64,000 bases of DNA from the NCBI GenBank assembly GCA_048881705.1, contig JBHLSH010000006.1, positions 1 to 64,000 on the forward strand. Reading direction: 5' to 3'. The notes beneath the pieces were generated by a model, which was not told where the DNA came from, did no database searches, and saw nothing but the letters and a program-made list of their open reading frames with translations. Position 1 is the first letter of the stretch, and the number at the start of each line of letters is the position of its first letter. Below are positions 36,977 to 42,408 of this stretch, piece by piece. A program made the translations under genes and the position numbers. The DNA is from Candidatus Heimdallarchaeota archaeon. GTDB lineage: Archaea; Asgardarchaeota; Heimdallarchaeia; Hodarchaeales; Hodarchaeaceae.

Positions 36977-39760
36977 GTGGTAAGAGTATACACCGCAGCC
37001 TTAATAGATAAACCTCTACGCTCTATAAATAAGAATTTACAGAAAAAAATTACTTCTGATTTGAGAAAATCTCTAAAAGTTCGGGGTGATGCAGTAACTG
37101 GCCAGGAATTGAACACATTCCTCCTAGTTTCCGGCAGAAACGGAAAGAAGGGATTTACTCCGGAAATGATAGACAAGGTTGAAAAGGGAACCATTCAGAA
37201 AAGACTTAAACAGTATTACACCAGAAATGAGTCACGTTTTAGGAACCATATGAAGAATAATCAAGAGTTATATGAAACCTCGCAGGTAGTAAAGGAATTC
37301 ATCCGGGAGATTGATTCGTCGCTTCCCAGAAAGTTTGACCAACATTTAAAGAAAATTAACACGGATTTACCGGAAATTTTCTGCCAAGTTAGCATGAAGA
37401 GCTTTATTACATTATGGGAGATTGAGGAGAAAGAAGAATATCGTTTTAACCTATCTGGATTTGATTTTCCCATATTTACTGGAAAAACCAATGGAACCTC
37501 ATTCGATATAGGTGGGTTGGTAGATAAACTTCTCATCGTAAATTTCTTTGAGACTTTCTTAAATTCAACTCTCCAGCGATTGGATGAGATGAACCACGTT
37601 CTTGAACGCCTTGAGTACGAACTTGCCAAGCCACACTATCTGATTAAGAACGAAAAACTGCATGCCAAATTTTCCCTCTTTCTACGAATTCTGGTTGCGA
37701 AACTAAGCGCCCTACAAGAGCTAGAAAACTCGATCTTTCGTATCTTTAGTCTGTTTGACATACCGTACATGATTCTTCTTCAGTATCATTTCAAGAGCGA
37801 TTTTCTAGATTTAAATAACGAAATTGCCAGGATTTGTGAGGAGATAAATACAGGGAAAAATAAACTCAATGAGGTTGGGGAGCGAATTGATCGTTGTCAA
37901 TTATCCCTCCGAGATTATCTTGATGATGGTATTAATGGAGTAACTGTAACCAATTCTTTTCAAGTTTTCAAAGATGCCTTGAAACCACTGGCCGATTTAA
38001 GTATCGATTTATTTATAGAATCTGAGATGTTAAAACTTTGGTCGGATTATTTCGGCTCGGATATTCCTTATTTCAGTTTTAATGTGCAATTAGACGAGGA
38101 TACCGACACCGAGGAGGCTATTGAGATTGAAGATGATGTCATTTTAGCTGTTAGAGGGCTTTATAAGAACTATAACCTTGGTCGTACTACCGTTTATGCA
38201 GTGAGGGGAGTAAATCTCGATATTAAGGCTGGTGAGTTTGTCGCAATCGTTGGCAGTTCAGGCGCAGGCAAGACAACACTATTAAACTGTATGGCCAGTT
38301 TAGATACTCCTGATCATGGTGCCGTTTATTTTCGAGGGAAAGACTTACACCATATGAAAGATTCGGAGAAAGCAGAAGTTAGACTTCACGAAATGGGCTT
38401 TATCTTCCAGAGCTACGCTTTATTACCTCATTTTGACACTCGTGAAAATGTAACCCTTCCAGCAAATCTGGCAGGCGGACTAAGCAAAACTATCAGAACT
38501 CGAATTGAGAATCTGTTGGTTGGAGTAGGGATAAGCGAACAGGCAAAGCAATATCCTGCCCAATTGAGTGGAGGACAGATGCAACGGGTGGCAATTGCAC
38601 GAGCTCTTACTAATCAACCTACTATCATATTTGCTGATGAGCCCACGGGTGATTTGGATTCAGTAACTGGGATTCAAGTGATGGAATTGTTAAAGAAATT
38701 CCATGAGGAAACAAGGACGACGATTGTGATCATCACACATGAGGAAAGCATTGCTGGTTATGCGGAGCGGCAGATTATGATGGAAGATGGAATAATTACA
38801 CAGCGAAAACGGCCCGTTGATCAAGCTGGGCAGTCCATCCTGATGGAAAAGCCGCCAATCATTAAAACTGAGGCCGAACTACCTCCAATTTCGAACGAAA
38901 GAGTAAGCAGAATCGAAGAGAGGTTGGGGATGATTGAGAAGAAAAATATAGAACTATTGGGTAAGGTAGTGAAAGAGGTTCAAAAACAGTTAGATGAGGT
39001 AAGAGGCAAAATAGAAGTTCTTGGGGTCGAAACCAATAAAAAGCTGCTGGATCTGAGTACAAGATTTGAACAATTAAACACCAACGCCAGTAATTGGTCC
39101 TTTGCAATCAATGAGCAGATGGAATCATTTCGTGCTCAATACGTTCAAGCGCTGGAAGAGCTCCGGCAATCTACAATCAGATCAGCCGAAAAGGAAACCA
39201 TTCTTTCTCAAAAGTATACAGAGCTTGTCGGGCAACTAAGAGAAAAAGAACGTATGGCAATCGAAAAAGGTAATTTAAATAAAATAAGGCTCAGTGCATT
39301 ACAAAAGGAGATACAAAGGAAGGAATCAGACCTAGGGATCTATAAGGATAGATTAGAAGAGCTGGAGTCTGAAATAAAGGTAAAACAACAGCATATTGAT
39401 GAATCCGCTGAAATCAAAATGAAGACCGAAAACCTTGTAAACAACTACAGAAAGCTAAAGGAAGCTTATGATGATAAGAGTAGGGAAGTGACTCAATTAC
39501 AAGCTCAACTAGCAGCCGTGACTGAAGATACCCAGAAGATCGTCAAAAGCACCAATGCAATAAAGGCATTCCTCGATGAGAGTGATTCAGGTCGAATTCT
39601 GTATCAGCTGCTTAATTCTGAACGTATGACTCTGGATGAACTAGCGGCTCGGACAGAAATCGCAACATATACTGTTTACCAAATTGTTCAACATTTTCGT
39701 GAAATTGGTGTTGCTCAATACGATAATTCTACTCGTATAGTAACCTTGGTAAATAGATAG
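36977..39760 (+). CDS. Multidomain protein: N-terminal helical domain, LolD-type ABC ATPase, coiled coil, C-terminal winged helix
   Basis: Central GSSGAGKT / LSGGQMQR / IFADEPTG / ITH; ~230 aa of heptad-rich E/K/L/Q sequence; terminal GRILYQLL...MTLDELAARTEI....VYQIVQHFREIGV. GTG start after GGAGGA. Confidence 0.88.
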   Translation: MVRVYTAALIDKPLRSINKNLQKKITSDLRKSLKVRGDAVTGQELNTFLLVSGRNGKKGFTPEMIDKVEKGTIQKRLKQYYTRNESRFRNHMKNNQELYETSQVVKEFIREIDSSLPRKFDQHLKKINTDLPEIFCQVSMKSFITLWEIEEKEEYRFNLSGFDFPIFTGKTNGTSFDIGGLVDKLLIVNFFETFLNSTLQRLDEMNHVLERLEYELAKPHYLIKNEKLHAKFSLFLRILVAKLSALQELENSIFRIFSLFDIPYMILLQYHFKSDFLDLNNEIARICEEINTGKNKLNEVGERIDRCQLSLRDYLDDGINGVTVTNSFQVFKDALKPLADLSIDLFIESEMLKLWSDYFGSDIPYFSFNVQLDEDTDTEEAIEIEDDVILAVRGLYKNYNLGRTTVYAVRGVNLDIKAGEFVAIVGSSGAGKTTLLNCMASLDTPDHGAVYFRGKDLHHMKDSEKAEVRLHEMGFIFQSYALLPHFDTRENVTLPANLAGGLSKTIRTRIENLLVGVGISEQAKQYPAQLSGGQMQRVAIARALTNQPTIIFADEPTGDLDSVTGIQVMELLKKFHEETRTTIVIITHEESIAGYAERQIMMEDGIITQRKRPVDQAGQSILMEKPPIIKTEAELPPISNERVSRIEERLGMIEKKNIELLGKVVKEVQKQLDEVRGKIEVLGVETNKKLLDLSTRFEQLNTNASNWSFAINEQMESFRAQYVQALEELRQSTIRSAEKETILSQKYTELVGQLREKERMAIEKGNLNKIRLSALQKEIQRKESDLGIYKDRLEELESEIKVKQQHIDESAEIKMKTENLVNNYRKLKEAYDDKSREVTQLQAQLAAVTEDTQKIVKSTNAIKAFLDESDSGRILYQLLNSERMTLDELAARTEIATYTVYQIVQHFREIGVAQYDNSTRIVTLVNR

Positions 39761-41554: not shown

Positions 41555-42226
41555 TTAGAAGAATTCAGATAATGTTGTTTTGGGGCTTTTCTTTTTTGCG
41601 GGTTTTATTGTAGCCGGCCCGTTATCCCCCTTACTCGGTAGTGTATCAACAATCCAACTATTCATCTCTCCCTCATACGGTTTAAGGATCGCTAATAACT
41701 CTTCTTGAGTTTTCTCATAATCGAGCCAAAAATCGACTAGTTTTTTATCAAAAATGACTGGCATTCTATGAAAAACCTTTTCAACAACGGGATGAGGTTC
41801 AGTTGTTAAAACTGCACACTTATACCTCATCCTGGTCTCCTCTTCATCAAAATAAGAATTATAAATACCAGCAATTCCGAATAATGGCTCATTTTTTAAG
41901 GAAAAGTAATATGGGATTCTTTCTTTACCCACTCGCTCCCATTCAAAAAAACCGTTTGCAAGAATAACACAACGTTTTTCCACAAAGGCTTTCCTAAAAA
42001 GCTTTTTTTCATGAACCGTTTCACTTCGGGCTTTATATGATTGAAAACCTTTTGTATAACCCCAATACATTCGAACTAGTTTGTATCCTTCTTCATTTAC
42101 AATTGCAGTTGCTCTGTTTGTTGGTTTAAGATTGTAATAAGGAAAAATCTCAAGGTTCCCTGGAGAAACGCCAAATGTTGATTCAATTTCATCTTTTGAC
42201 GCAAAAAAGGCAAATCTGGAAGGCAT
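41555..42226 (-). CDS. SOS response-associated peptidase (SRAP/YedK/HMCES) family protein with non-canonical N-terminus
   Basis: YNLKPT, MYWG, ARSET, RCVILANGFFEW, LFGIAGIY and HRMPVIF motifs; begins MPSRF instead of MCGRF. Confidence 0.88.
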   Translation of the reverse strand: MPSRFAFFASKDEIESTFGVSPGNLEIFPYYNLKPTNRATAIVNEEGYKLVRMYWGYTKGFQSYKARSETVHEKKLFRKAFVEKRCVILANGFFEWERVGKERIPYYFSLKNEPLFGIAGIYNSYFDEEETRMRYKCAVLTTEPHPVVEKVFHRMPVIFDKKLVDFWLDYEKTQEELLAILKPYEGEMNSWIVDTLPSKGDNGPATIKPAKKKSPKTTLSEFF

Positions 42227-42408
42227 AGGATTCGATTCGGCACCTGTTTTAAAAAAATGTTTTACGAAGCTTAAAATGGGGGACTCGTTAAGAATGCCTG
42301 AATTTTAACTGGAGAGGATAAGTCATCTACTCAAAGAATATTGATGGAGATACAATTACATTTCGGAAAGCGGATTTCGGAGATATTCCCTCTCTCATAA
42401 ATGTCTAC

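Follow-up and report, generated by a model that had tools for sequence, protein, structure and literature searches.

The stretch of DNA analysed here, the window, comprises 64,000 nt of contig JBHLSH010000006.1 from an assembly of a Candidatus Heimdallarchaeota archaeon, and carries at 41555..42226 a gene for a 223-residue protein (plus stop codon) of the SRAP family, in which the N-terminal cysteine is replaced by proline. The gene was delineated from the list of open reading frames (ORFs) and assigned by Pfam (PF02586), AlphaFold2 and Foldseek. The first-pass annotation had read the gene in the same way, and this reading was borne out, but its strand needs correcting: the gene lies on the minus strand, to which all feature coordinates given below for the gene and its upstream element refer. 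The first codons are ATG CCT TCC AGA TTT (MPSRF), and the segment M1-P2-S3-R4 (ATG-CCT-TCC-AGA; 42215..42226) presents P2 and S3 in place of the Cys2 and Gly3 of the family, with Arg4 kept. The claim that this start has no upstream alternative was upheld by the ORF list and the closed frame, the nearest in-frame stop being 26 codons upstream of the ATG with zero ATG, GTG or TTG codons in between. The Pfam SRAP profile matched with an E-value of 1.2e-45 over positions 1-208 of 214, and since profile position 1 falls on residue 1, the protein has the normal N-terminus of the family and is not truncated. SRAP was the sole match in the Pfam scan of the 223-residue protein, in which the Fapy_DNA_glyco N-domain, H2TH and the zinc/zincless finger were absent. 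Upstream, an 11-nt TATA-box-like element, TTTTTTTAAAA, is located 21-31 nt from the ATG (42247..42257) and is kept at an equal distance from the ATG in four related loci (the window, L002, L004 and L089); it is presumably an archaeal TATA box driving a leaderless or very-short-leader mRNA that starts at the ATG.

The AlphaFold2 model, based on an alignment of 131 sequences, had a predicted local distance difference test score (pLDDT) of 92.8 and a predicted template modelling score (pTM) of 0.89, with low confidence limited to the last ~20 residues (pLDDT 54-63). The significant Foldseek matches were all SRAP proteins (probability 1.00) and comprised, among others, BT_1218 (PDB 2f20; template modelling score, TM, 0.84), HMCES (6OEB; TM 0.81-0.82), YedK (6NUA; TM 0.78-0.79) and the Schiff-base complex of the YedK C2A mutant (8D2M). 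By fold and profile, the 223-residue protein is a member of the SRAP superfamily. With YedK of E. coli and the SRAP domain of human HMCES (PF02586; PDB 6NUA, 6KCQ, 6OEB) it shares the fold (TM 0.78-0.82), the length, the active site at the extreme N-terminus, the Glu and the DNA-contact residues, as well as a C-terminal tail of a putative clamp-binding type, such as has been reported for HMCES. The differences concern Cys2 (Pro), Gly3 (Ser), Asn75 (Lys), His160 (Phe) and Ala39 (Lys), and extend to a remodelled C-terminal DNA-contact segment (LP..GDNGP).

These equivalences were derived from hidden Markov model (HMM) alignments to the YedK and HMCES chains, in which K65 corresponds to YedK Asn75, E95 to Glu105, F152 to His160, H153 to Asp161, R154 to Arg162 and P35 to Pro40. 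K34 (42125..42127), which adjoins P35, is a clade-specific Lys for the Ala of the YN(I/V)APT motif; K65 (42032..42034), in Y-K-A-R-S-E-T, takes the place of the Asn of the (I)NAR motif. Within V-F-H-R-M-P, the triplet F152-H153-R154 (41765..41773) has Phe for His160 and His for Asp and keeps the Arg162 equivalent, the clade alignment reading i-f-h-r-m-p against i-h-d-r-r-p in this region. E95 in GFFEW (41942..41944), equivalent to YedK Glu105, is retained. The KAR and FHRMP motifs, the catalytic Glu of GFFEW and the DNA-binding Arg/Trp positions had all been pointed out earlier from the letters of the window, and the HMM alignments confirmed them.

A single alignment of 36 Pro-clade members and 95 Cys-type relatives showed an absolute split, with zero crossover between the groups, at four positions. 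Position 2 is Pro in 36/36 and Cys in 95/95, position 65 Lys in 36/36 and Asn in 95/95, and position 152 Phe in 36/36 and His in 95/95; at position 34 all 36 clade members have Lys, which occurs in 0/95 of the Cys-type relatives (81% Ala). Ser3 is present in 36/36 clade members, compared with Gly3 in 91% of the Cys-type relatives, and P197, D201 and T206 of the C-terminal DNA-contact segment are likewise clade-specific. The coordinated remodelling proposed at first (C2P, G3S, Asn to Lys and His to Phe) is consequently clade-wide, and A34K, absent from that proposal, has to be added to it. Over the full range of 46-100% identity, M1-P2-S3-R4, K65, E95 and F152 are invariant.

Common to both groups are R4, N32, P35, W55, R67, E69, E95, W96, T141, R154, M155 and P156. 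In YedK, mutagenesis has identified Arg4, Pro40, Trp67, Arg77, Trp106, Thr149 and Arg162 as contacts to single-stranded DNA, with Pro40 stacking on the base 3' of the lesion (PMC6821365). The equivalents of all of these (R4, P35, W55, R67, W96, T141 and R154) are kept in the Pro clade and in the canonical proteins alike, and DNA binding by the Pro clade is therefore probably retained. The picture is one of a conserved DNA channel in which three of the four canonical catalytic residues (Cys2, Asn and His) have been exchanged. Judged by these residues, all three of which it fails to match, the Pro-type SRAP should not be annotated as a cross-linker of the YedK/HMCES type.

The best match, BT_1218 of Bacteroides thetaiotaomicron (PDB 2f20; E 6e-38 with the clade profile), also has no His at the YedK-His160 position, with Lys there and His next (K-H-R-M-P versus F-H-R-M-P). 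It differs in that the Asn is kept and in that the Bacteroidota-type relatives of its subgroup start with Met-Cys; its own N-terminal third lay outside the sequence-search alignment. This Cys-type subgroup (MCF/MCY starts; L017, L018, L031, L084-L086; PDB 2f20) was observed in Bacteroidota and has Lys/Arg-Lys for the His-Asp before R-M-P, from which it follows that the 'invariant' His160 position is not invariant across SRAP. The same subgroup was also encountered in one Asgard family (f12), where its members cluster with sequences from Bacteroidota, a pattern suggestive of horizontal transfer.

A search of 5.8 billion proteins returned approximately 40 clusters at 90% identity that were 46-100% identical to the query; the named sources were Hodarchaeales, Kariarchaeaceae, Heimdallarchaeota LC_3 and other Asgard metagenome-assembled genomes (MAGs), and all full-length clusters of the clade begin MPSR[FL]. 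When 1.84 billion cluster representatives were scanned with the clade profile in HMMER, two Pro-type clusters at 50% identity scored 334 and 218 bits, and ordinary MCGR proteins followed next at 177 bits. A scan of metagenome contigs added two further Pro-type loci only (L089 and L090). In a maximum-likelihood tree of 128 SRAPs, all 23 Pro-type rows were monophyletic (Shimodaira-Hasegawa-like approximate likelihood-ratio test, SH-aLRT, 99) on a long stem of 0.53 changes per site; their sister was a single representative (SH-aLRT 83), and the placement of the clade within the SRAP tree was weak. Collecting SRAP homologues that start with MP, as had been proposed, thus recovered a monophyletic clade with co-varying residues. 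Pairwise comparison of the window gene with four close relatives gave ratios of non-synonymous to synonymous substitution rates (dN/dS) of 0.07-0.14, and the Pro clade is under purifying selection. Pro2 is accordingly neither unique to this assembly nor carried by a gene that evolves neutrally.

With these data, an artefact or a decaying gene, be it through a misplaced start, a sequencing error or pseudogenisation, becomes a negligible prospect. Such an origin might be read into an in-frame TTG six codons upstream in one genome (G050), used by one gene caller, and into a frameshifted second copy in another (G070); however, the exchange of Cys for Pro together with Gly for Ser (TCN) takes four nucleotide changes, and more than 36 independent sequences agree. 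On a contig from a different study (X4) the start region was recovered, and its first four codons differ only by a synonymous TCC to TCA in the Ser3 codon (window position 42218 G>T). A wrong start, sequencing error and pseudogene were rejected on the closed frame, the HMM match from residue 1, the clade, dN/dS and this contig. Runs X1 and X2 look like a single data set, probably the source, and do not count as independent of each other; inside the gene, at window positions 41805-42077, they also contain alternative short contigs with 6-10 differences over 127-159 bases, an indication of variation between strains in the sampled material.

The window's genome (3.96 Mb, 91% complete) contains this gene as its sole SRAP, and a check for a canonical MCGR copy in that genome found none. 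A survey of 83 species-representative genomes from the class located the Pro type in 4/22 genomes of the window's genus (G000, G062, G070 and G076) and in a single genome from a different family (G050), with TTG-CCT as its start. The Pro-type gene is accessory and patchy. Other Heimdallarchaeial families and other Asgard classes have ordinary MCGRF proteins, many with S-L-D-D-F-F-like tails. The genome of the other family (G050, 63% complete) has its Pro-type SRAP, with the K and F-H motifs, on C627 (L073), and additionally a canonical Asn-type SRAP fragment ending S-L-E-D-F-F on C150 (L074), so that coexistence of both types is possible. The second Pro-type copy of G070 (contig C7, ~81265-81922; L005/L072) is spread over three reading frames covering profile positions 4-65, 56-123 and 121-224, and represents a frameshifted paralogue or pseudogene. 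In G060, a remnant with a TAA was noted at C93:4772-4942.

Biochemical work on YedK provides a guide to what such a protein may do. Cross-linking by YedK is lost once the Cys2 thiol is removed or blocked (C2A, C2S or formaldehyde-blocked Cys); the C2A and C2S mutants use their N-terminal amine to form a Schiff base that borohydride can trap, and then cleave DNA containing an abasic (apurinic/apyrimidinic, AP) site by beta-elimination (PMC9436759). Glu105 is needed to open the ring and to form the Schiff base, and the H160Q exchange left Schiff-base formation by C2A unchanged (rates 1.8 vs 1.7) and lowered lyase activity only 2.5-fold (PMC9436759). Because YedK thus becomes a Glu-dependent Schiff-base AP lyase once the thiol is gone, our favoured interpretation is that the Pro-type SRAP may be a PCNA-tethered, amine-nucleophile Schiff-base AP or deoxyribose-phosphate (dRP) lyase, a proposal that, relying on residues and analogy, we place at about an even chance. 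The window protein has kept a residue at its N-terminus that is permissive for methionine aminopeptidase (MetAP), along with the Glu and the DNA channel, and has lost what the thiazolidine alone requires, a pattern consistent with this lyase reading. By the established specificity of MetAP, a Pro in second position permits removal of the Met, and M24 peptidases are present in the window's genome.

In the proposed mechanism, the SRAP protein would still bind abasic sites in DNA that is single-stranded or forms a junction, and there Glu95 would still open the sugar ring. Removal of Met would expose the secondary amine of Pro2, the most likely nucleophile, with Lys65 as the alternative. A stable thiazolidine cross-link should be chemically impossible without an N-terminal Cys and, with no thiol trap, the intermediate would resolve by beta-elimination. 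Instead of shielding the lesion for long, the protein would then work as an AP or dRP lyase, carrying out chemistry like that of Fpg/Nei on the scaffold of SRAP, and its ..L..FF tail would keep it bound to PCNA where DNA is replicated or repaired. We infer each of these elements from sequence and from analogy with characterised enzymes: the removal of Met, the identity of the nucleophile, the outcome as a lyase, binding to PCNA and the substrate in vivo.

Two known systems lend themselves to comparison. The YedK C2A and C2S mutants (PDB 8D2M) similarly have no thiol at position 2, but theirs is an engineered primary amine of Ala or Ser in an otherwise wild-type pocket, whereas the secondary amine of the Pro clade occurs naturally, is fixed and comes with four additional changes in the pocket. 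In Fpg/Nei, an N-terminal Pro exposed by Met removal is the Schiff-base nucleophile, with a catalytic Glu nearby. The resemblance of the Pro-type SRAP to these H2TH enzymes (N-terminal Pro, nearby Glu) would be a mechanistic analogy only, as their fold is unrelated and the window protein is not a member of that family.

The clade-specific lysines allow a variant in which Lys65 or Lys34 is the Schiff-base nucleophile of a lyase and Pro2 merely fills or rigidifies the pocket vacated by Cys. Endo III, OGG1 and Pol beta use a Lys in this manner. The two pocket lysines are found in the Pro clade only (each 36/36 vs 0/95), and a Lys at the Asn75 position could reach C1', since YedK Asn75 touches the Cys2 backbone beside the lesion (PMC9436759). 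Nevertheless, the proven nucleophile of YedK C2A is the N-terminal amine (PMC9436759), and the bacterial MPGRF proteins described below have Pro2 but Asn and Ala at these positions, implying that Pro2 was selected without the lysines. We consider a lysine nucleophile improbable.

Alternatively, the protein could have remained a covalent shield, albeit a transient one, in which Pro2 or Lys65 would form a reversible carbinolamine or iminium adduct that reverses by itself without cutting the strand. The adduct might be trapped by a neighbouring amide or hydroxyl, giving a 'soft' counterpart of the HMCES cross-link, for which removal by proteolysis would be unnecessary. Like the shielding members of the family, the Pro clade retains the DNA channel, the Glu and a tail of the PCNA type, and the invariant Ser3 and the new Lys residues adjoin the nucleophile. 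Moreover, SRAP cross-links are reported to self-reverse, and this reversal to matter in cells (PMC9436759; PMC10842721, PMC10505908). What makes such a shield rather unlikely is that secondary-amine iminium ions strongly activate beta-elimination, as established chemistry and as in Fpg/Nei, and that YedK without its thiol cleaves and does not protect (PMC9436759).

A second, bacterial lineage bears on the role of Pro2. Among the nearest 150 representatives, one non-Asgard sequence had an MPG start, the other non-Cys starts (MGHRF and MFKRF) being singletons. Follow-up of the MPG start led to six clusters at 90% identity (P0205, P0211, P0215, P0216, P0219 and P0222) that begin MPGRF (one MPGLF), their sources including one named Dadabacteria MAG and one Thermodesulfobacteriota MAG. 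These proteins are ~70% identical to their MCGRY neighbours and keep Gly3, the Asn of INAR, the Ala, the Glu and the His of I-H-[DNE]-R-M-P. In a tree computed without residues 1-2, they formed one clade (SH-aLRT 87; short stem, 0.064) nested among the Cys-type proteins. Compared with the Asgard clade, this small lineage is alike in that Cys2 independently gave way to Pro while the SRAP stayed intact in other respects, and differs in keeping Gly3, Asn, Glu and His and in having no LxxFF tail. The exchange of Cys for Pro has thus taken place in SRAP at least two times, in one case leaving the rest of the pocket unchanged, and the MPGRF lineage seems to represent the switch in a recent and minimal form. 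An independent switch with an intact pocket argues that Pro2 itself is selected, and weakens the notion of a dead enzyme.

Under that notion the protein would be a pseudoenzyme, no longer catalytic but tethered to PCNA, reading AP sites or single-stranded DNA junctions non-covalently and recruiting or blocking other enzymes. It would accommodate the loss of three of the four canonical active-site residues and the dispensability of the gene in most of the genus, and YedK indeed binds tetrahydrofuran (THF)- or AP-containing single-stranded DNA tightly without chemistry, H160A and E105A binding tighter still (PMC6821365). However, P2, S3, E95 and K65 would be irrelevant to a pure binder and yet are invariant over deep divergence, and the small residue kept at position 2 is permissive for MetAP. 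In addition, the bacterial Cys-to-Pro change arose independently with the other catalytic residues intact, and the remaining sporadic non-Cys variants are singletons rather than clades. Taken together, a non-covalent reader seems unlikely to us.

The proposed tethering to PCNA concerns the C-terminus, where the clade has a run of basic residues and, after it, [GST]-L-x-x-F-[FL], with L219 and F222 conserved. In the window protein, the tail T-T-L-S-E-F-F follows KKKSPK (41558..41578); it resembles a PCNA-interacting protein (PIP) box, and lies in the low-confidence, probably disordered part of the model. When the ORFs of at least 120 residues in the window's genome were scanned for a C-terminal [LIM]xx[FYW][FYWL], 44 matched, and ten with a polar context were picked. 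Four of these ten are PCNA clients (two PolB, PolY and Fen1), and a fifth DNA enzyme is a DNA methylase. A gene for PCNA is present in the same genome, and for HMCES, docking to PCNA through a PIP box of the C-terminal tail has been reported (bioRxiv 10.64898/2026.05.18.726044). The tail shared with PolB, PolY and Fen1, the presence of PCNA and the report on HMCES together suggest that the Pro-type SRAP may be tethered to PCNA by its C-terminus.

Similar endings were noticed in other proteins. In G000, a 452-residue ORF without a Pfam match (C24:34665-36020; L171) ends KKKEKSLTDFF and lies ~1.8 kb from the PCNA gene (C24:37815-38132), and a DUF72 protein (C36:26389-27339; L175) ends YGLSEFFG; by these tails, both are candidate uncharacterised partners of PCNA. 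Many bacterial SRAPs and those of one Heimdallarchaeial family end ..[QR]-x-x-L-F or ..L-F-[DNP] (L006, L009, L010, L017, L021 and L055-L067), endings that resemble a beta-clamp-binding motif and form a parallel to the L..FF tails seen in the other SRAPs of Asgard archaea.

Several points weigh against a PCNA-tethered lyase. The main biological objection is that cutting single-stranded DNA at the fork is dangerous, as it would lead to double-strand breaks; what the enzyme really acts on may be a 5'-dRP, a gap or an AP site in duplex DNA. The window's genome is already equipped with two genes of the Fpg/Nei family (C12 and C54) and three HhH-GPD genes, and the loss of His160 and Asn75 could equally mean a loss of catalysis. 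Occurrence in so few genomes of the genus implies that the Pro-type gene is dispensable, and the comparison of gene neighbourhoods revealed neither an operon partner nor conserved linkage to repair genes. Finally, the canonical Gln of a PIP box is absent from the tail, in which K-T-T-L-S-E-F-F supplies the hydrophobic L..FF part.

The SRAP family is defined by an 'invariant' N-terminal Cys with which it shields abasic sites, and the published work on SRAP and HMCES that we found rests on this Cys and the thiazolidine cross-link. A literature search of incomplete coverage, which included the founding SRAP paper (PMC3765255), found no Pro-type or Asgard SRAPs; the family was known to that paper from a few euryarchaea only. 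A conserved and selected Cys-less subclass suggests that the fold can support a second chemistry, and the Pro forms can be regarded as natural counterparts of the C2A and C2S mutants, with MPGRF as the minimal switch and MPSRF as the full remodelling. A possible course of events is that SRAP exchanged Cys for Pro at least twice and that in Asgard archaea the pocket was afterwards rebuilt (Asn to Lys, His to Phe and Ala to Lys) into a PCNA-tethered lyase, convergent with Fpg/Nei on an unrelated fold, a scenario that we find plausible but place somewhat short of an even chance. A clamp-bound lyase or a self-releasing shield, if true, would change the view of how abasic sites are handled at archaeal forks, and would give enzymologists a new N-terminal-proline catalyst to set beside Fpg/Nei. 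Were the protein a lyase, it would, we tentatively suggest, embody a change in nature from guarding the lesion to cleaving it, at the replisome of those archaea that are most closely related to eukaryotes.

The genes neighbouring the Pro-type SRAP gene (2-oxoacid_dh-like, DUF6326, GNAT and MarR) are held in common with the nearest relative, G070, alone. Elsewhere in the window, at 36977-39760 on the plus strand, a 927-residue protein of unusual architecture is encoded, in which a central ABC-transporter ATPase domain lies between long regions without Pfam matches, the C-terminal third is rich in coiled coil and the end is winged-helix-like. In G070, this gene is adjoined by a paralogue.

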